A stretch of DNA of 63,647 bases, filler included, from Collodictyon triciliatum (GCA_043381765.1; 17 parts of 17 records of this genome joined end to end with filler, not necessarily neighbours in it), one strand, 5' to 3'. Counted from the whole stretch's first letter, positions 49,385 through 60,657 are shown. Numbers and translations: made by a program. Notes: a model not told the origin generated them from the sequence alone.

Positions 49385-50733
49385 AATTGGACACGAATGT
49401 CCCCATGCTTTTCAATTAAATACCCTTGGAAAGTATTGTAAGTGTTGGGATATTTAATTGGGTCTAACTCTCGTGGCAAGTCAGGGCGCATAATTATATC
49501 TTTGACGTATCTTTTCTTTTCATCAGCAAACCAGTTTATTAAGAAACTTTTTCCATCAGGAACACGTAAGTGCGAATATCTCATATTAGCATCCTGGTGG
49601 TTCCATTGATGAAGAGTAAAATCGTCTTTAATCATCATACATCGACCCATGAATTCAAAATGAGTCTTTTCAAATGACTCTTTTGTTATATTATACCATT
49701 GTTCCCAAACCCTGTCCCTATAAGCAATATACACCATAGTAAACAAGAATTTAAAATCTTTTTCCGACAATACTTGTTTGAGCATTGTAAGTAGCGTTCT
49801 AAATGTAACTGGGTGTTTAGACTTTGGGGCCTTTTGTAACTGGCTTAATTTTTCAAGTCGTTCTTTGGTACTTGACTCTTGAGAATCTGGCAACTGGGCA
49901 CAAACTTTTAACCAGGTCTCTTGCAAATTATCAACATTTGCATTGACTAAAATAAACCCATACTTGACCCAACTATCGTAATCTTGTGGAAGTTTTTTAA
50001 AATATTCTTGTTGCAACATTTTATCAAAAAGCTCCTCAGTAAAAATTCTTTCTTGTAAAGAAGTAGTAGTGGTTTTTACTTTGTCTGCAATCATAGGACA
50101 AATAGTAGACTCAACATTTTCAGGTAACGTTTGTTCAATGGTGCGTTTCTTTGACTTTACCAAATGTGAAATGCTGGAAAAATCAAAGTCAGATATTTTG
50201 TTTTTAAACATTTTATCTTCACGCTCCCAGATGTTCTTTGTATACTTTATGATATCAACATCTGGCATTCCTTCACCAAACACCTTGGTACCTTCCATTG
50301 ACTTTTGAAAATCTTTAATTTTTACATAGATATGAAAGCCCTTGTTGTTACCTCGTGTCCAGCACATCGAATTGTTGATTGTTGGGACATTTAAAATTTG
50401 CCCAAGTTGATTAGGGTCATTTATCTCTTCAGAATCACAATCAATACAAACAAGGTCGGGAACATACTTTAGATAAAGTGACGCAACTCTAAAACACTTA
50501 TCTTTCTTTTCCTCTCGATTTACTCTTCGTTTAAGATATGTACACCAAGTCGTATACATAGTTTTACTCTTTTCTTTATACGCTTCTAACTCATTTAATG
50601 GGCAGTCGTTCTTCTCAATGATAGTATGCTTTTTACCATTTTCTAAATAGTAATGAGCATAGGCATATGGGATTTGATTTGATACTATGAATTCAATAGT
50701 TTGCATTTTTTCTTCCATTATCTGATCGTTCAT
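49385..50733 (-). CDS. Viral AEP primase(-polymerase) with PriCT-2 and the start of a D5/SF3 helicase region; 3' partial
   Basis: AEP motifs LVCIDCD, GNNKGFHIYV and VDII; PriCT-2-like YDSWVKYGFILVN; then FEKTHF..FLINWFADEKKRY..RP..TYNTFQGY, typical of the region preceding D5-like helicases. Confidence 0.75.
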
Positions 50734-50933
50734 ACTCTACCTTAGAAATTTGTTTTTAACTTAGCAATTATACTATATTATCTATTATATTATATATATT
50801 ATCTTATTAGATAGGTTAAAAATGTAAATTGCTATGGAAAGAGGAAGATTTTTAATACAGTGTATTGAAGTTATAATTCCTATAGGAACCTAGTTTTGGG
50901 TAGCAAGCGACCCGGGACCCAGCGAAAATCAAT

Positions 50934-51137
50934 TCAATCAAATGTTAGAGTCAACTTGTTGGTACCATTCTCAACTAGCATTCTAAACAGATACTTTAAC
51001 TTTTTTCTTTTTGCGTATTTCTCGAGGTAATAAATATGGTTGAGCATGTCGTCGTAGTCTGAAAAGTGTTCCTTGGAAAAAAACAACTGCTCTCCTACAG
51101 TGTTATCATTCAAAGTGTAAATGAGCAGAGTGTACAT
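50934..51137 (-). CDS. Small conserved viral protein (67 aa, C-terminus KLTLTFD)
   Basis: Resembles 58801-58965 in element B; ATG at 51137 is preceded by TTTTCT-N10. Confidence 0.6.
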   Translation of the reverse strand: MYTLLIYTLNDNTVGEQLFFSKEHFSDYDDMLNHIYYLEKYAKRKKLKYLFRMLVENGTNKLTLTFD

Positions 51138-51158
51138 AAATTTTCTGAGAAAATATAT
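51138..51158. promoter_or_regulatory. Putative bidirectional viral promoter ATTTTCT-G-AGAAAAT between divergent ATGs
   Basis: Quasi-palindrome supplying TTTTCT to both the small ORF (10 nt spacer) and the ATPase (12 nt spacer). Confidence 0.55.
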
Positions 51159-51881
51159 ATGCAAAGCAAACGAGTGTCCAACATTAAAATAAAACCACTG
51201 ACTCAGCCTCCTAAGGGTAAAAATTTTGGGATTCCGTTTCCATTGCCGGATATTTCCACGCGAAACTTTATAATGGGAGTGCTCGGACCCACAGGCTCAA
51301 GTAAAACCACATTGTACGCAAATTTAATTCGCAAGCACTACTTTGAAGTTTTCAATAAAATATATTTCTGTTCACCCAATGTCACGGATGAAGGGAAAGT
51401 GTATGATCGGTCGCTGGATTCAATAGAGTTTGCCGAGGAACGAGTTTTTCCAACAATTAATAACGAGGTTGCAAATTATATCAAAGAAGATTGCGAGAAC
51501 GACGAGGACTTTAAAAAAGAAGATTTTCGTGCGTTGCTTATAATAGATGATTTGGCAAATGAGCTCAAAGCGGTTAAGCATACTGAACTAACGAAATTAA
51601 TTCTAAAGTCCAGGCACTTGCATTTGTCAATCATTATGATATCGCACAAGTTTACATATTTCCAACGAATCCATCGCACCAACTTTACGCATTTTATCAT
51701 GTACCGGTCAAAGTCGAAAGCCGAGATAAAAACAATATATGACGATATCATTGACCTGTCTGAGGAGAAGTTCCAGGAGCTTTATGAATATGCAACCGCA
51801 GAAAAATACAATTTTCTTTATGTGATTTGCAATTCCAACCCCCAACAATACTTTAAAAATTTTGAAGAGGAGTTAACTTAG
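51159..51881 (+). CDS. A32-like (FtsK/HerA) DNA packaging ATPase
   Basis: FIMGVLGPTGSSKTT (Walker A variant), FNKIYFCSP, LLIIDD (Walker B), SRH arginine finger, RTN and C-terminal YNFLYV..YFKNF. Confidence 0.9.
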   Translation: MQSKRVSNIKIKPLTQPPKGKNFGIPFPLPDISTRNFIMGVLGPTGSSKTTLYANLIRKHYFEVFNKIYFCSPNVTDEGKVYDRSLDSIEFAEERVFPTINNEVANYIKEDCENDEDFKKEDFRALLIIDDLANELKAVKHTELTKLILKSRHLHLSIIMISHKFTYFQRIHRTNFTHFIMYRSKSKAEIKTIYDDIIDLSEEKFQELYEYATAEKYNFLYVICNSNPQQYFKNFEEELT

Positions 51882-51901
51882 AATTTTTTATTTGTAATGA
51901 T

Positions 51902-52312
51902 ATGGTATTCACACGTAGAAGCTTGAAGAAATTTTTCAAAGGTGCAGTTAAAGTCGTACGGAAGGGAATGAATGTCGGAGAAAAAGTTGTTAATGCCGTC
52001 GATAAAGCCACCGGGGGCGGGCTGCGGGACCTCGCTCGGACGGCAACGGGCGGACTGTCAGAACAGGCGCTGAAGGTGTACAATGCAAACAAAGGGCACG
52101 TGAAAAAGGGACTCGACTTGGCTGAAGGCAAAAAGGGTGCTACTGTTGCAGGTCTAGTCGAAGGCACTAAATTCCAAAAGCCATTTGAAAAAGGTGCTGA
52201 ACAATTGAGAAAATACGACCCTGTAATTCGAAAAGCTGGTCAACAAAACGAATCCCTGGGAAAAGTAATTAATACGCACGGGGACAACATTCGAAATAAA
52301 ATAGGTTACTAA
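51902..52312 (+). CDS. Basic Gly/Lys-rich viral protein with N-terminal amphipathic helix; candidate core or membrane-lytic protein
   Basis: SLKKFFKGAVKVVRKG and ATGGG; lies between the ATPase and the major capsid gene. Confidence 0.65.
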   Translation: MVFTRRSLKKFFKGAVKVVRKGMNVGEKVVNAVDKATGGGLRDLARTATGGLSEQALKVYNANKGHVKKGLDLAEGKKGATVAGLVEGTKFQKPFEKGAEQLRKYDPVIRKAGQQNESLGKVINTHGDNIRNKIGY

Positions 52313-52338
52313 GCGAAAATTATTTTCTTTTTAAAAAT

Positions 52339-53076
52339 ATGGATTCACTACCCGAAGAACTGCAATTTAGAAATATCTCATCCAAGAAAAAAACAATCCT
52401 TGAAAAGCAACAGCGCCAGGTCCTGCCCAGCAATGGAACTGAGCAGACTGCCAATTTTTCGTCAGGGCCGCAGATCGTGTTTAGAGTGCCTATAGACAAC
52501 GAGTGGAGTATTCAAATGGACTCAGCTCATATCATAGCGGATTTGACTGTTAAGGGGTTGTCTAATGAAGACTCATATAATAATCTTAAAAGAACACAAA
52601 TAGATATAGATGCGGGTGTTAAACTTCCAATTCTTGCTCCCTGTGAGAGTTATGAAAGTTTTATTTATCGTATTGCCGTTTATCTCAATGGTAGTGAGCT
52701 TGAGCGTATAGATAATTACAGTTACCTTGAGACTTTTAAACATAACTGGTGTAATAATCAGAATTGGGTCAATCTTATGTCAGGTGGAATGGGATTGGGT
52801 CAATCTATTTTAGAAAAATCCAAATTACTGTTAGGTGGACTGGCTACTGATGCAACCAGTTCAAATACTATTCAAATAGGATTTCCACTTCGTTACTTGG
52901 GGTTGATGAATATAAAGACACTTTTGCCGGCTTACTTACTGGGTCCCAATTCTCTTGAAATTCGTATTTGGTTGGCACCAGCCTCTGAATGTTTTACATA
53001 TGGTTCTATAACCAATACTGCAAATAATAATTATCGATACATAAATTGGACACCTAACACAGCCAACGCTATTAGC
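52339..53076 (+). CDS. PLV-type double jelly-roll major capsid protein; 3' partial
   Basis: LPEELQF..RQVLPSNG..F.SGPQIVFRVP, ESFIYRIAVYLNGSELERIDNYSYL and FPL..LGLMN..TLLPAYLL..LEIRIWLAP follow the pattern of the first jelly roll of PLV capsids; adjacent to an A32 ATPase. Confidence 0.82.
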
Positions 53077-54296
53077 NNNNNNNNNNNNNNNNNNNNNNNN
53101 NNNNNNNNNNNNNNNNNNNNTTAATTAATTAANNNNNNNNNNNNNNNNNNNNNNNNNNNNNNNNNNNNNNNNNNNNACATACATACATACATACATACAT
53201 ACATACATACATACATACATACATACATACATACATACATACATACATACATACATACATACATACATACATACATACATACATACATACATAAAAAACA
53301 GAGAAAATAAGAATAAAAAAGCAAAAATAGATAATGAAAAATGAAAACAAAGAAAATAAGCAAAATCAAAACAACCATGGGACAAAATCAACTCTAGCAC
53401 CTTAATAGCTGTATATTTATTACACTGCAGGAATCTTAAGCTGATTTCACATCCCACCATATCGCCAGATCGAGTAAGCCGCCGAAAACCTGTTGAAATG
53501 GGTATTTGAGCTGCATCTTCCATTTTATGATACATTCATCATTTACCATATTGTCGCTATTCAATTGGTGCGCCGATGGTAAATCACTTCCCACTGCGCA
53601 GAATCGAAGCCATTACCAAAGCCGATATACGGACGTCGTATGGTTGATGAAAGCAAACAGTTTATGAGAAAGTCAAACGAGTCTCAATTCTCATTCGCAG
53701 AAATGTTTTCGTAATCCACCACACGATTGTCGATCTTTTCTAATATATCTACCCTCATGAGTAGCGAGAATGACATTGAAATGATTTTGAAGCATCTATT
53801 CGCTCCCTTTTTTTTTTCCATTATATGTTTCTCCGTTTACCCCTTTTTCTTTCCCAGTGCCACCTAATTAGCTTGATTTTGATCCCAACGAATGATATGC
53901 CGTCTATCTGATTCAGAGGAAAGACCTTAATCAAGATATTGTGTGTCTATGGGAGAGTAAATTGATCAAAGGAGGCTTTACTAAAGCCAAAGTGCATCAG
54001 GAAAATGATTAAACCAAAGAAAAACAACATCTTTGGATTCTCTTACATGTTCCTCAGGTCGAAGATACTCAAACTAGAAATGAATAAAGAAAAATAGCTA
54101 TACCGAAGGAGGCCATTTCGAATTCACTCAACAGAGGGGTATATGTGAATGACTGAAACATAAAGAACCCAGACACCCGATGCACATCTTTTGATTTGGT
54201 TCATTTTTAATTTTAACTCGTCATCGCCAAGCAAGATAGGCCTCTGAGTGGCCAAGCATCTTTCGACAAAACTGTGATTGAAACAGGCCATCCGAC

Positions 54297-56730
54297 TCAC
54301 TGAGAATCGTTTGTTCCTTGGCTCGACGGTGGAGTCTCACTGTCGCTGGGTTTCGTCTTTGAGAAAAAGTGATTCATGGACTTCATTCCCCGTTTATCCA
54401 CTTTGGCTAGTTTCCGTTGGGACACACTGAGGCCCGGTGCCTTCTTTTCAGCCTTTTTGGAACGATCAAAGTCTGCATCATAATCGCTCTGACTTGATTG
54501 CGAGTGGTCGGAGGCTGCAGACGGCTGAAATGCGAAATCTATTTCATGGCCATTTTCAGCAAATTGAAAACAAAGTAATAGGCTAAATAGGTGTATTGTA
54601 ATGAAAAAGCCTCAAGGTAAACAGTGTGATATTTTTATGTGCATAGACCGGATATGAGTAGAGGTGTTATAGTGAGAGAACAAGGAGTGTCTCGAATATG
54701 ACTCTTTACCAGAGAGTTTCTTGGTCACTAAATGCTCCCTAATTGGTACGTTTGGGGATAAGGGCATGAGTGGTAGGCGATAAAGCAATATCGGAATCAT
54801 CGTACACATCATAAATGTATGAAAAACTGCTTGATTAAGGATAGGTACAATTCATATCGAATAAAGGAAAAAAAAAAAGAAAAAGAAAAGGATAGATACA
54901 ATTCATAATTTTACTCCAAAATTCAATTGAATAACCTGTATGTTTCTTCAATTATGGAGTATACGTCTTTTGGTAAATATTCCTTCAAAATCGACGCGCA
55001 GAATCGTGTGAGTGTGGCTGCATCATGAAGTACTTTAAGTTAATGCCGAAATGCATTTCATGGAAAAATTACGAGTATTCTTATTTTCTAATATGTATAT
55101 ATTCATTCACCAGCATCTTCACCCATCATGCACAATATTGAAAGGAATAAAAAAAAAAAGAGGAGTATATGTTCATTCGGTATGACTCTAGAAAAAGAAG
55201 CCTTACATTCATCACATTCTGGGTTAGCTCTTGAAGTGGCAAAGGACGAGGACCNNNNNNNNNNNNNNNNNNNNNNNNNNNNNNNNNNNNNNNNNNNNNN
55301 NNNNNNNNNNNNNNNNNNNNNNNNNNNNNNNNNNNNNNNNNNNNNNNNNNNNNNNNNNNNNNNNNNNNNNNNNNNNNNNNNNNNNNNNNNNNNNNNNNNN
55401 NNNNNNNNNNNNNNNNNNNNNNNNNNNNNNNNNNNNNNNNNNNNNNNNNNNNNNNNNNNNNNNNNNNNNNNNNNNNNNNNNNNNNNNNNNNNNNNNNNNN
55501 NNNNNNNNNNNNNNNNNNNNNNNNNNNNNNNNNNNNNNNNNNNNNNNNNNNNNNNNNNNNNNNNNNNNNNNNNNNNNNNNNNNNNNNNNNNNNNNNNNNN
55601 NNNNNNNNNNNNNNNNNNNNNNNNNNNNNNNNNNNNNNNNNNNNNNNNNNNNNNNNNNNNNNNNNNNNNNNNNNNNNNNNNNNNNNNNNNNNNNNNNNNN
55701 NNNNNNNNNNNNNNNNNNNNNNNNNNNNNNNNNNNNNNNNNNNNNNNNNNNNNNNNNNNNNNNNNNNNNNACACGTCTCGATAATGAATGGAAAATGAAA
55801 TTGAATTAACAACTTTTCACATCACAAATAAGTTCCAGGCGCAAATCTTTGCATTCTTTCAGTTTGTGCAATTTAGGTTCCTCAGAGGATGTCAAAATCT
55901 GCTCCATATCAATAAAAGCACCACCTTCACCTCTCTAGAAAGGATGTAAGTAGGTATAAAAGTTGCAAAAGAGTGGGTAAAGTAATAAAAGGAAACGAAA
56001 GTGCTGAGTACATCAACAAGCAGTCTTTATGCGGCATTACAACGAATACATGGTTAATATCACATACTCTTCCTTTACAAGAGTCAACCAATTTTGGTAT
56101 TATAAGAAAAAGCGGATCTATTTGTGATGCAAGATAAAGTGAACCATCTGCATGATAAAGAGGTTAGAATATCGCTTATCTGCTCATCACAGCTATAAGA
56201 GGTATTTCTAATGCCTGTAATTCACATCCTCAGATGACCTGGGTGTTAATTATGGGACATATAATATATGTTATTACAATTTTATTAGCATTAATAAAAT
56301 TATGATGGCAATATACAATACCTGCTATTGCGCTGTCATCGACGAACCATGATCGGTGTGGCTCTTTGGTAACCTGAATCTCATAGCAGAGACCCCCTTG
56401 AACAAGAAATTTTGCAGGTGACCCTGAGTATATTTTAATATCGAATACATAAGCATGTGTCTCCAAGTTTAAAAGTTAGTATAGAATGTTTGGCAGATTT
56501 AAGGAATCGGGTTAAAAAATTAGAATAAAGACAAAATAAAACAGAATTAAAATTAAAATTAAACAAAAATAAAAACATAATTAAAACAAAATAAAACCAG
56601 ATTATTTTTCTAAAAAAAGAAAAAAAAAGGAAGCTATAAACCTGTGCGTGGGTGCAACAAAGAAAGGAACTCAATGTGCTCTTCACCGTCTGCTGTTCCT
56701 TAACGTCCAAAACGAAGGTAGGTTCGTTCG
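54297..56730 (-). CDS. RNASEH2B: Ribonuclease H2 subunit B; multi-exon, spans an N gap, 5' end uncertain
   Basis: YEIQ..PHRSWFVDD, DGSLYLASQIDPLFLIIPKL and the C-terminal PIP box LAKVDKRGMKSMNHFF. Confidence 0.85.
54857..54887 (+). mobile_element. Ultra-short LINE 3'-end insertion with 20-bp TSD, intronic
   Basis: AAGGATAGGTACAATTCATA [TCGAATAAAGG plus A-rich tail] AAGGATAGATACAATTCATA (1 mismatch). Confidence 0.85.
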
Positions 56731-56771
56731 TTTTATATATATTAAGAGTACATGTAAAAAACACACACAAA

Positions 56772-56869
<98 letters not shown>

Positions 56870-56969
56870 NNNNNNNNNNNNNNNNNNNNNNNNNNNNNNN
56901 NNNNNNNNNNNNNTTAATTAATTAANNNNNNNNNNNNNNNNNNNNNNNNNNNNNNNNNNNNNNNNNNNN

Positions 56970-58457
56970 CTTCTCACCAAATACCTCATTTAGAGATGAG
57001 TGTGTGCCGCCGTATTGCTTGCCCAGAACACCCTGGATATACAGCTTATGAAAAAAAGATGTCTTACCAGTGCCTCCTTTGTTGTTTCGGAATATCATCA
57101 TCTTGCCAATTCGATAATGCGGATGGAATATGATTTTGGCTAAATACTGCATCACATATTTCAGTGACGCAGGATTGCCAGCGCACAGATACTGGGACAA
57201 CTGCTTATAGTTCATACTCTGTTTCCAGATAGCATAATCATCTGCTGTCACTGAGCTGCGAATTTGATTACAATACCCCCACCAGTCAGTTTTTTGTATC
57301 GCATTTAACTCTGGAAAATACTTTTCGAACTTGAACCCTTTAAAATAATTGTAAGCTCGTGGATTGTAATAGTTGGTAAACATGTTGTATGGCATAAAGT
57401 CGAAATACTTGTAGCGCCGTTCGGGACATAAATTTCTCTGTACATGTTTCCAGTACTTGTCTCCAAACTCCTCACAATAAGAACCTGGATTGTCTATGGG
57501 TTCGGCCTTGCGAGAGTTGTCTTCATGTTCATAAAACAACTTTCCAAGTATCATAAAGTGTTCAAGAGCAAACTTTGTGATACACAGGCCATCTTATTCT
57601 TTTTCTTTATCAGGCTCTGGCTCGAAAGTCGATTGAATAGCTTTACTCTCAAATTCTAGGGCGTACCCGGTATGCTCACGTATGTATTCAGACAACTTGA
57701 CATTCAGTTCTGTTCTGTATTGACTTTTGTTGACATACAGTCCGTCAAACACATAGACACTAACATGAACACTGTTTTGTCGCAAAAAATCGATAGCCAG
57801 TTGCATCACTTTTAATTCCTCTGTCTGCAAATAGTAACTCAACGTGCTATAAATGCGATTGCTGTGTTCGTATAGAGCGTTGGTGTCTTTTTTAAACTTT
57901 ACGTTGTGCCACTCCTTACACTTTTCGTATACGTTACCGGCTAGGACTAGCATCTCTTCTCCAAGGGTTTTAGTAAACTCGTCGCCCTGAACCCATTTGT
58001 TGCCATATGCAATGCTCAAATACAGCTTCTTGGCTTCTTTGTGTGACATGTTAAAATCCTTCATCGTTTTATGGATGATCTGCTCACGGTCCTCAACATA
58101 TGTCTTTATCGCAGTGTGGGGCAGATCCCACTTCCTGGCCAAATCCAAGCTTAAGCAATAGTGGCAATTCTTGATGTCCAGGTTAATGTGTGTGTCACAC
58201 AACAAGAATTGACGCACGGGTTTTGGAAGCTTTAACACTGAAACTGATTTATGATACACCCTTCCAATTCCAATCTTTTGCAAGTACTCGGTGTGCTCAT
58301 ATTTCACAGTCAAACGATACGTATCGTCGTCTGGTGCTGATAAGCTCATCTTGCGTATAACGCCTAATATGCCTTTGGTCGGCTTATCAATCTTATCACG
58401 CGGTTGCTTCATGAGAAGCGCCACTTTCTTGACGTCGATGTGCTCAACTAGTTCCAT
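56970..58457 (-). pseudogene. TVpol (PolA-like primase/polymerase) fused to SF3 helicase, split by one in-frame TAA at 57594-57596; 3' partial
   Basis: GRVY, LPKPVR, motif A LDIKNCH, motif B AKKLYLSIAYG and motif C VFDGLYV; the same frame continues EKE*DGLC into YLAKIIFHP..GKMMIF..GGTGKTSF (Walker A). Confidence 0.8.
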
Positions 58458-58513
58458 TGTAGTACTAAGATACACTCTTATTACGAAATGTCTTTAACTG
58501 TGTATTTTGTGCA

Positions 58514-58761
58514 CTCCAGAAGAAAATGGGCATTCGGGTGTTCCCTTGCAAATGTCCCTTGCAAATGTCCCCTTTTAGGGCCCTTCCAAAACTATTTTTA
58601 ATTTGACCCTACCCTAGAATATTTGGGTAGGGTAGGGTCTATTTTTCCATCTACTTTCTATATTTTGGGGGTTGAACAAGTAAGGATGAACATAGGATAA
58701 ACATAGAGGTACAAGACTGAAAGAAGTAAGGAGACATGCCAGTGCCCATTTTCTTCTGGAG
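58514..58761. repeat. 19-bp perfect inverted repeat enclosing a tandem 13-mer and a hairpin
   Basis: CTCCAGAAGAAAATGGGCA (58514-58532) and TGCCCATTTTCTTCTGGAG (58743-58761); CCCTTGCAAATGT twice; GACCCTACCCT..AGGGTAGGGTC (58605-58639). Confidence 0.85.
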
Positions 58762-58800
58762 GATGAACAGGACTTAAACAGGGGTTGTGCAGTTCTCCCG

Positions 58801-58965
58801 TTAATCAAAAATGACCTTGACCGGCCCTTCTATGATACCGTACATATGCGGCCCCTTCTTCTTTCTGCTCTTTTTCCTCAATGCCTCCAGCTTATCAAAG
58901 TATTCTTTCAGTTCCTCAAAAGTAGAAAAGAGCAGTTCACCGTCCGTGGTATATAGTCGTAGCAT
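58801..58965 (-). CDS. Small conserved viral protein (54 aa, C-terminus VKVIFD)
   Basis: Resembles 50934-51137; ATG is preceded by TATCT-N10. Confidence 0.6.
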   Translation of the reverse strand: MLRLYTTDGELLFSTFEELKEYFDKLEALRKKSRKKKGPHMYGIIEGPVKVIFD

Positions 58966-58981
58966 ATCTAAGACTAGATAT

Positions 58982-59703
58982 TTAAAAAAGGATCTCTTCC
59001 GCAAAGTTCTTGTAAGCTTTGATTCTGCGGGGTACCATCAAGTTGACGTAGAGAAAGCAATAGGGGTCTGCGGTGGCAAAATCAAATACCTGGTCAAAGA
59101 GTTTCTGATCGAGGTTTGTCATTTCATTGAGGGCTTCCCGTTCGTGTTTGTTGTCGGTATAGAAAGCAACGAGGTGGGAGGCGTTTTGCCGTACCTTGGG
59201 GTTGAACAATCGAATGGCGTGACCCACTACGATCATAGAAAGTCTGAAATGACGGTGCTGCAACATTTTCTTGAGCAGGGTCTTACTAGGGCGCTCGAAA
59301 GCGGTTCCCAGGTCGTCTACCACGAGAAGGTAAGCATTGTCCTTGAACTCGGGGTCACCGGTTATGTCTTTTGTGACTTGTTCAAAGATTTCCTCGTTAA
59401 AGTCCTCATACATGCGGCTCTTGTGAAATTTGACACCCTCGTATGAAGAATCGTGTATTTCTCCTCCGGAAATATTACTGGAGCAAAAATATACCTTGTC
59501 GAATATCTGGTGGTACATTTCTCGCTTACCCAGCAAATTACTGATCAGCGTCGTTTTACCGCTAGCGACTTCTGCAGAGATCAACATTCAGAAGGGTCTA
59601 TCACTCTTTGCGTCCGGCAATATCTCCAATATCACTTCGCGCTTGTTTTTTTGACGGTTTTTAGTGGGGCAACCTCAACGTTACTTACTTTCTTGCTTTC
59701 CAT
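58982..59703 (-). pseudogene. A32-like packaging ATPase with a frameshift (A7 run, 59646-59652) and an in-frame TGA (59588-59590)
   Basis: N-terminus MESKKVSN aligns with MQSKRVSN of element A; LPD..RPF*MLISAEVASGKTT, LLVVDD, HRH, RQN and YCFLYV..YKNF. Confidence 0.85.
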
Positions 59704-59709
59704 ACAGTA

Positions 59710-60036
59710 TTAACGAAATAAAAGATCATTGTCGTACGAGAGTTCCCGCACCTGGGCCTTGTCTACTGTTTCCTTAATTCTGCGCTTCTCGATTTTTCTA
59801 GCCTCTTCCTTTGTGAGATATTGTTTGATCAAGGACACGTCGTGCTGTAACGAAGAATAGTCGTGAATGGGTTTTTTGACAGCCTCGTATTGCTTGACCG
59901 TTTGAACGATTTCCTTGTTCTTCTTTTTTGCTTCTGTTGCTTTAGGTTGAATTTTGGCGAGGTGGGCTCTCTGCTTTTCTGATGCTACGCGTTTCTTTTT
60001 TGGTTTCTCAATGGTATTTATTTCCGAATCACTCAT
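59710..60036 (-). CDS. Basic coiled-coil viral protein
   Basis: 108 aa ORF with KPKKKRVASEKQRAHLAK; preceded by TTTTCT-N10-ATG; packed between ATPase and penton. Confidence 0.65.
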   Translation of the reverse strand: MSDSEINTIEKPKKKRVASEKQRAHLAKIQPKATEAKKKNKEIVQTVKQYEAVKKPIHDYSSLQHDVSLIKQYLTKEEARKIEKRRIKETVDKAQVRELSYDNDLLFR

Positions 60037-60069
60037 ATGAATCCATAGAAAATAATTTCTGGCAAGAGT
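60037..60069. promoter_or_regulatory. Putative bidirectional viral promoter AGAAA-ATAA-TTTCT between divergent ATGs
   Basis: TTTCT lies 10 nt before the ATG at 60036 (minus) and 9 nt before the ATG at 60070 (plus). Confidence 0.55.
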
Positions 60070-60657
60070 ATGGACAAAGCGTTTTACATTTATGTTGATT
60101 CCGAAAACCGAGAAAGCGGAAGTATCGCAGACTTTAATTTCGCAACGACACAGAACAGGTACGTGTCGAGTAAAGCAAAAATCGGATTAGAGAGCATCCA
60201 GATACCGAATGCCGTACACAATGTCACATCCGCCAACAACGAGTTATCCTTCCTTTGCCAAGTCGGAGCAGACAGCCCCGTTTCATACAATGTGTCACTT
60301 GAAACTGGATTACAAACCATCAATGAAATAGTCAGTGACATTAGAACAAAGATGAACGCAGCCACGGCATCCCAGTCAGCTAATGCGGTTGTTTCAGTTT
60401 CATTTCTTACCGGCAAACAGAAGATTGCTATCAAAGGAGACGGAGCATCAATCTCATATCAATTGTTTGTGAATTCGTCGACGTGCCGGGACCTAATTGG
60501 GCTGACGGCCAATCTATCATTCAATACGTCTTTTGTGGAGCTACAGAATACAGTCAATATTCGACCTTTTGATTATGTGTACCTGGTCAGCCCGAACATT
60601 CAGAGTTCGAGCTTTGCCAGCAACATAGGCGGCAATGGCATCATCGCAAAAATACCG
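60070..60657 (+). CDS. Minor capsid protein (penton, single jelly roll); 3' partial
   Basis: IYVDSENRESGSIADF, IGLESIQIPNAVHNVTSANN, DLIGL, VNIRPFDYVYL and IIAKIP match the PLV/virophage penton pattern. Confidence 0.85.

Follow-up and report, generated by a model that had tools for sequence, protein, structure and literature searches.

A position-fixed TTTCT element as the probable conserved promoter core of a freshwater clade of polinton-like viruses

The stretch of DNA analysed here (the window, 63,647 nucleotides (nt), positions 1-63647) comes from the assembly of Collodictyon triciliatum (GCA_043381765.1) and contains fragments of two polinton-like viruses (PLVs), named contig A and contig B below. 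The subject of this study is a short motif, WWTCT, which ends 10 nt before the ATG of most of the genes on both fragments. It belongs to a longer element that is very probably a conserved promoter of one freshwater PLV clade.

Most PLVs are known from sequence alone, without an established host or an established dependence on giant viruses. A sharp promoter (AAAWTATTTTCT, N10, T-ATG) for an abundant freshwater clade could be used for calling gene starts, as a marker separating sister clades with different expression signals, and as a concrete probe for the matching giant virus in the same samples. Promoter motifs shared between giant viruses and their small capsid-bearing parasites are already established, so that the present work adds a case and leaves the general picture unchanged.

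Two viral contigs in a chain of joined contigs

The window contains 16 pairs of 44-N runs with 12 bases between the members of each pair, and in both pairs whose letters were inspected the linker reads N44-TTAATTAATTAA-N44. The window is a chain of unplaced contigs of ~3.7 kb with synthetic six-frame stop linkers between them and holds no continuous piece of chromosome. Since the contigs were joined by these linkers, the adjacency of features on the two sides of a linker is artificial, which has to be borne in mind whenever integration or host defence is claimed. Open reading frames (ORFs) with '...LIN' endings or X runs are artefacts of the linkers. The interval 50731-60072, treated as a single locus in an earlier reading of the sequence without database searches (the sequence-only reading), proved to consist of two independent contigs, A and B, with an unrelated contig (53177-56869) and linkers in between, so that A and B are not neighbours. 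A host-virus junction was sought on both and none was found; they are viral end to end, with their termini within viral genes. Integration, and the role in host defence raised in the sequence-only reading, would be hypothetical. When PLV proteins were compared with the window by tblastn, matches were obtained in contigs A and B only.

The capsid protein, penton, A32-type ATPases and replication proteins (Table 1) identify contigs A and B as parts of two PLVs that diverge from each other, with ATPases sharing 31% identity. ATPase relatives with 74-90% identity are present in public assemblies, and a set of 24 metagenome loci and 3 IMG/VR loci (L001-L027), from which the window was excluded, was assembled. 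The major capsid protein (MCP) gave no match to the PDB by sequence profile, and the capsid was identified by fold search alone: the model of the L006 MCP (pLDDT 77, pTM 0.80) is a double-jelly-roll that matches the capsid proteins of PBCV-1, iridovirus, Sputnik and mavirus with E-values down to 6e-16. For the penton, the top matches to the model of the L020 protein (pLDDT only 72) are the pentons of mavirus (6g41, E 2e-8) and Sputnik and the penton base of adenovirus. The L020 orthologue of the contig B primase-helicase carries DUF5906/VapE-like helicase domains, and the DUF5906 helicase protein is also carried by relatives. No RNA polymerase gene was seen in any of the PLV fragments.

Table 1. 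Genes of the two viral contigs, motif copies before their starts and two giant-virus genes. Coordinates refer to the window unless a locus is named.
Feature	Position	Strand	Remarks
Contig A, polinton-like virus fragment	49385-53076	.	both ends cut inside genes; N44-TTAATTAATTAA-N44 on flanks
Replication protein of contig A, N-terminal part, cut by contig end	49385-50733	-	weak PriCT_2 match, E 0.03
TTTCT, 10 nt before ATG 50733	50744-50748	-	
orf67, small gene, 67 amino acids (aa)	50934-51137	-	kept in L001 (55% aa)
TTTCTGAGAAA, palindrome in 21-nt divergent intergenic gap	51142-51152	.	TTTCT on both strands
TTTCT within TTTCTGAGAAA	51148-51152	-	10 nt before ATG 51137
TTTCT within TTTCTGAGAAA	51142-51146	+	12 nt before ATG 51159
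A32-type DNA-packaging ATPase of contig A	51159-51881	+	Pfam Pox_A32 E 8.7e-14
TTTAT variant, 10 nt before ATG 51902	51887-51891	+	T-run/TAT variant kept in L001, L009
orf136, 136-aa small protein between ATPase and capsid gene	51902-52312	+	conserved in 10 related loci
AAAATTATTTTCT, element in full form, ends 10 nt before capsid-gene ATG 52339	52316-52328	+	contains TTTCT
Major capsid protein, first 246 aa, truncated at contig end	52339-53076	+	37% identity to L006 MCP
Contig B, second divergent polinton-like virus fragment	56970-60657	.	gene-breaking lesions; 89% DNA identity to metagenome locus L020
Primase-helicase of contig B, N-terminal part	56970-58457	-	in-frame TAA 57594-57596 where L020 reads through
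TATCT, 10 nt before ATG 58457	58468-58472	-	
orf54, doubtful gene, 54 aa	58801-58965	-	78% aa vs 89% nt identity to L020
TATCT, 10 nt before ATG 58965	58976-58980	-	
A32-type ATPase of contig B, broken	58982-59703	-	Pfam Pox_A32 E 8.6e-7
TTTCG variant, 10 nt before ATG 59703	59714-59718	-	identical in L020
orf108, basic small protein, 108 aa	59710-60036	-	conserved in L019, L020, L021, L023
AGAAAATAATTTCT, near-palindrome common to divergent gene pair	60047-60060	.	TTTCT on both strands
TTTCT within AGAAAATAATTTCT	60047-60051	-	10 nt before ATG 60036
TTTCT within AGAAAATAATTTCT	60056-60060	+	9 nt before ATG 60070
Penton (minor capsid) protein, first 196 aa, truncated at contig end	60070-60657	+	91% identity to L020 protein
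Zinc-finger-like gene with exact AAATTATTTTCT 11-12 nt before ATG	L148:10001-10906		
Zinc-finger-like gene with exact AAATTATTTTCT 11-12 nt before ATG	L154:8838-9731		

A position-fixed element before viral gene starts

WWTCT ends exactly 10 nt before the ATG at 6 of the 10 viral starts and at 9 or 12 nt before two more, and the base at -1 is T at 9 of the 10. Reading the sequence confirmed all ten positions and spacings, and the T before the ATG, as claimed earlier. Among the 236 other ATGs of the viral contigs, a single one has the same WWTCT-N10-ATG arrangement, and in the remaining contigs of the window 15 of 1921 ATGs (0.8%) have it. It is absent from the 17 readable long-ORF starts of the non-viral contigs, a weak control since the true host starts and leaders are not established. 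The intergenic DNA here contains 80-85% A+T. Every k-mer at every spacing was scanned in the ten 45-nt upstream regions against shuffles preserving dinucleotides. The top 5-mer was TTTCT at spacing 10, present in 4 of 10 upstream regions, and none of 2000 shuffles reached 4; the top 4-mer was TTTC at spacing 11, in 5 of 10, which 1 of 2000 shuffles equalled. Positional enrichment over shuffled controls, named in the sequence-only reading among its checks, is borne out for TTTCT at spacing 10.

In the relatives, ORFs were called mechanically (first ATG, at least 70 aa, non-overlapping). TTCT occurs at spacing 10 in 12 of the 123 unique upstream regions of L001-L027 and in at most 2 at any other spacing, and none of 1000 shuffles reached 12 at any spacing. 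The same arrangement is seen at 19 of 4060 non-start ATGs of these loci, and 1062 gene starts from unrelated AT-rich IMG/VR contigs gave a flat profile, with 3 at spacing 10. The observation is far above chance, and a real, position-fixed, promoter-like signal is common to two divergent viral elements. The proposal that both elements use one signal is upheld, as it is shared despite the low identity of the ATPases and is conserved in the metagenomic relatives. The wider statement that nearly all viral genes carry it stands in part: in the relatives the element marks mainly the capsid and packaging module.

Alignment of the instances gives a full element of ~12 nt, AAAWTATTTTCT, followed after the spacer by T-ATG. 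The table of instances behind this consensus (n=25) includes one internal ATG of a broken contig B gene, and TCT is invariant in it by selection. The spacing is 10 in 17 of these instances, 9 in 2 (both pentons), 11 in 2 (both capsid genes) and 12 in 4 (among them three ATPase genes). TCT is followed by T in 12 instances and by A in 9, with C and G in 2 each, giving a core TCTW. Of the 19 N10 instances, 17 have T at -1 and 18 have A or T at -10; elsewhere the spacer is free. The element is best conserved at the capsid gene, which it precedes in 6 of 9 lineages, with TTTTGT in its place in one more, and is also found upstream of the 136-aa, 108-aa and penton genes, in at least 8 gene families in all; it is absent before the replication gene of L002-L004 and the integrase gene of L004. 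In L002-L004 the primase-helicase gene has, in place of the TTTCT element, a palindrome ATCCTGGAWAA ~11 nt before its ATG, which may be a separate, perhaps early, signal.

When seven capsid-gene upstream regions were aligned, only AAAWTAWTTT[C/G]T and T-ATG were invariant, and the distance to the upstream stop codon varied. Because of this variation, and because a single copy serves divergent pairs, the element is tied to the downstream start, with no link to where the preceding gene ends. Its reading as a terminator or poly(A) signal of that gene was rejected, since the distance is fixed to the downstream ATG and the element is present in divergent pairs. The divergence of the two ATPases, the spread over the gene families and the restriction of the conserved footprint to the element also argue against mere inheritance of sequence.

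The sister subclade (L010-L012, L016 and L017), the ATPases of which are 40-51% identical, carries a different element, of the AAAAATAATATATAA type, in the same place. In this group TATAT often stands directly before the ATG. PLV relatives in IMG/VR amount to 3 loci found by ATPase and 1 by MCP, one locus in each being the same 12.9-kb contig of the sister group; it is filed under the name of a giant-virus metagenome-assembled genome (MAG), and we did not take this filing to indicate an association. Runs of 13 studies contain DNA near-identical to contig A, and the 17 runs that contain at least half of its sampled words are all labelled as freshwater, aquatic, drinking-water or aquaculture metagenomes. 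A literature search, which did not cover supplementary motif tables, yielded no report of the motif, and the matches to 'TTTCT' with 'virophage' that were inspected are primers. The Punuivirus late motif AAANAACATAAG was compared and found to be unrelated to the element.

Nature of the element and its possible reader

The element is very probably a promoter. It is strictly placed, clade-specific and repeated for each gene within gaps of 20-33 nt, and no viral RNA polymerase gene was seen, features that fit a short-leader core promoter. In such a promoter, the ~12 nt of AAAWTATTTTCT, ending 10 nt (9-12) before the ATG with T almost always at -1, would serve a single gene, or a divergent pair via one near-palindromic copy, from within the intergenic gap, and transcription would start within or just after the element, leaving leaders of ~10 nt or less. 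Most likely, it would be read by the late transcription machinery of a giant virus of the mimivirus order infecting the same cell, in parallel with mavirus and Cafeteria roenbergensis virus (CroV). Supposing that the element is a promoter, we rate the chance that a giant virus reads it as even or slightly better; the whole proposal, a promoter of the PLV clade that is read by a giant virus, is our best single guess and falls a little short of an even chance.

This proposal draws on known systems. According to the published accounts, virophages use the promoters of their helpers, and the late genes of CroV share an AT-flanked TCTA with mavirus and with the endogenous mavirus-like elements (EMALEs) of type EMALE04, so that the literature premise of the sequence-only reading holds. 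The PLV element is similar in that it has a TCT core with AT-rich flanks, stands immediately upstream of most starts in a small virus with a capsid but no RNA polymerase of its own, and is common to divergent elements. It differs in its TCTW core, its greater length (AAAWTATTTTCT) and its near-fixed N10, and instead of mavirus-type virophages it is carried by PLVs that have a primase-helicase and no known helper. The resemblance to TCTA claimed at first is therefore a loose one: the AT-rich flanks and the position just upstream of the start agree, whereas the base after TCT is more often T than A. EMALE types are described as differing in promoter motif, with only the CroV-matching type responding to CroV, and these differences have been read as specificity for different giant viruses. 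The PLVs are similar in that related groups each have their own upstream motif, the TTTCT-type and AAAAATAATATATAA-type PLVs being sister groups; they belong to another virus class and habitat (freshwater metagenomes).

The PLV Gezel-14T (PgVV-14T), whose helper is PgV-14T, is reported to use the early promoter AAAATTGA of that virus, which is of the mimivirus type, and the likeness extends to genes that form single units with helper-type promoters and AT-rich intergenic gaps. In contrast to Gezel-14T, the early motif AAATTGA is found in none of the 123 PLV upstream regions and nowhere in contigs A and B; the present motif looks late-type, because it is the capsid module that is marked. The poxvirus TAAATG promoters offer an analogy of layout only, with a T-rich core, a degenerate spacer and a conserved base adjacent to the ATG, all within ~25 nt of it; the sequences differ, and no TAAAT-like initiator is conserved here beyond the T at -1.

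A giant-virus counterpart was sought by scanning IMG/VR with the exact pattern AAATTATTTTCT, N9-12, ATG. At least 119 stretches contained one match each, no contig with several was present among the matches listed, and 10 of those listed lie at a predicted gene start. Two of these 10 are orthologous zinc-finger-like genes (48% identical) on giant-virus MAG contigs, one of which also encodes a capsid of the nucleocytoplasmic large DNA viruses (NCLDV). Through the zinc-finger-like gene, 36 giant-virus loci with 556 predicted genes were fetched. Since AAATTGA stands upstream of 62 of these genes, the loci belong to viruses of the mimivirus order. They show an enrichment of TTCT at 11-16 nt before the ATG (38 of 556 genes, against ~1.9 per position further upstream), and the 12-mer, with up to 2 mismatches allowed, occurs 13 times in that interval as compared with 6 times over the whole of 17-48 nt. 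In L148 the NCLDV capsid gene (Capsid_N E 1.7e-55) has AAATTTTTTTTCT 16 nt before the ATG, and so does its counterpart in L156 (86% identical). Like the PLV pattern AAATTATTTTCT, this sequence stands before a capsid gene and is followed by T-rich/AT-rich DNA and an ATG within 10-16 nt; unlike it, the spacing is 16 nt and the likeness comes from a single pair of close giant viruses. These data amount to a real likeness between the element and a class of giant-virus promoters, not to a match with a helper, and the giant-virus resemblance first proposed holds to that extent. The two capsid genes (L148:17672-18619 and L156:12801-14441) share a 30-nt upstream sequence, GAAATTTTTTTTCTTTAGC.AT..TATAAA-ATG, beyond which their DNA differs, and many of the 36 zinc-finger-like orthologues share an element GGATTTAGG..ATTTTT ~35 nt upstream.

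Several observations weigh against a giant-virus-read promoter. No helper was found in the IMG/VR scans or among the 36 giant-virus loci, and in none of these loci does the motif precede a large part of the genes; the highest count is 6 of 16 in L148, a locus which, like L154, was found through the motif itself. The TTCT class covers ~7% of the giant-virus genes, with a loose spacing of 11-16 nt and not a fixed 10; another capsid paralogue type in L154 and L166 and the orthologues of the A32-like gene of L148 are without the motif. On the side of the PLVs, TCTA proper is present in only 9 of the 25 instances, several of the mechanical starts are wrong (e.g., orf136 of L003/L004), and the close relative L004 encodes an rve integrase. 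RNA-library contigs from two studies fall on the capsid gene (52368-53076), with a few short ones elsewhere; none includes a 5' end, and carry-over of DNA is possible. Finally, PLVs that replicate without a giant virus have been reported.

These points bear on three other explanations, namely (i) a promoter read by the host, (ii) a signal acting in translation and (iii) a pattern without function. The first is possible, though less probable than reading by a giant virus: the element would be read in the nucleus by host RNA polymerase II, alone or together with a PLV-encoded DNA-binding factor at the near-palindrome AGAAA..TTTCT, and the virus would replicate without a giant virus. The rve integrase of L004 makes a nuclear phase with host RNA polymerase II conceivable, and the reported autonomous PLVs, the failure to find a helper, the strict N10 as opposed to the loose spacing in giant viruses, and the lack of the mimivirus-type early motif all fit with it. 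Against it, gaps of 20-33 nt leave no space for the usual TATA-to-initiator layout, and the motif resembles the upstream sequence of the L148/L156 capsid genes. Scanning ribosomes do not usually work with leaders of only ~10 nt or less. The lack of the motif at the non-viral long-ORF starts, itself a weak control, also speaks against a host signal.

In the second explanation, which we regard as improbable, the element would be a post-transcriptional signal in the 5' leader for the initiation or re-initiation of translation on multi-gene RNAs. The fixed distance to the ATG, as in ribosome-positioning signals, the T at -1 in most N10 instances and the tandem genes merely 20-26 nt apart would agree with such a role. 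The element nevertheless stands on both sides of the divergent pairs 51137/51159 and 60036/60070, where RNA from upstream is impossible, and no pyrimidine signal of this type is known to us from translation in eukaryotes. The third, a pattern due to AT-rich composition, post-hoc choice of the motif or shared ancestry, is close to refuted and very improbable, for although the motif was picked after looking at the sequence, the intergenic DNA is AT-rich and contig B and L020 are near-identical and so not independent, it is contradicted by the family-wise shuffles (none of 2000 for the window and none of 1000 for the relatives), the flat profile of the AT-rich control starts, the footprint confined to the element in the capsid-gene upstream regions and the divergence of the two ATPases.

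Beyond a promoter read by a giant virus, a more far-reaching version can be put forward only tentatively. The element could be a copy of the late promoter of some freshwater mimivirus-order giant virus and be usable as a probe for the helper, the sister TATATA-type could pair with another helper, and the decayed copy could be a relic of a provirophage-like, giant-virus-inducible element. If true, the element would pair with its helper a widespread PLV clade, near-identical DNA of which occurs in the metagenomes of 13 studies.

State of the viral fragments and other features

PLV genomes are small (~15-25 kb), their replication module varies (primase/helicase or pPolB), and an integrase may be present or absent. 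The PLV sequences of the window are 3.7-kb fragments, and homologous proteins are found on contigs of up to ~18-25 kb; neither a complete PLV genome nor terminal repeats were seen among the fragments and relatives examined. Contig A has no coding break along its length. In contig B the ATPase lacks one base relative to L020 near 59653 and has an in-frame TGA at 59588-59590, the ATG at 59703 being the start of this broken gene; L020 is intact at these sites and at the primase-helicase stop, and an assembly error is possible for the single-base loss. The ATPase-to-capsid module of contig A is shared with L003/L004 (~75% nt identity), and the match begins only at the ATPase. The replication gene of contig A and its counterpart in L003/L004 are unrelated (BLASTP E 1.9), which points to a swap of the replication module between contig A and its close relatives; module swaps are described as common in PLVs. 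The ATPase had no match in a phage collection, and a search of 49385-60657 against Rfam gave none.

The 200-nt AT-rich non-coding region 50734-50933 of contig A contains TATA-type palindromes, and because one DNA contig from a sequencing run fails to align at 50764-50921, this part varies between strains. Outside the viral contigs, window positions 11000-13000 have 53-60% G+C, as against 30-40% in the other pieces, with long ORFs overlapping in several frames, and may represent another organism or a repeat-rich region. In contig B, the 340-nt non-coding region 58458-58800, which is included in the 89%-identity alignment to L020, has a 34-nt inverted repeat (58514-58547 / 58728-58761, 82% complementary) that surrounds a 17-nt hairpin (58600-58644), and this region may be a replication origin or a small inserted element.

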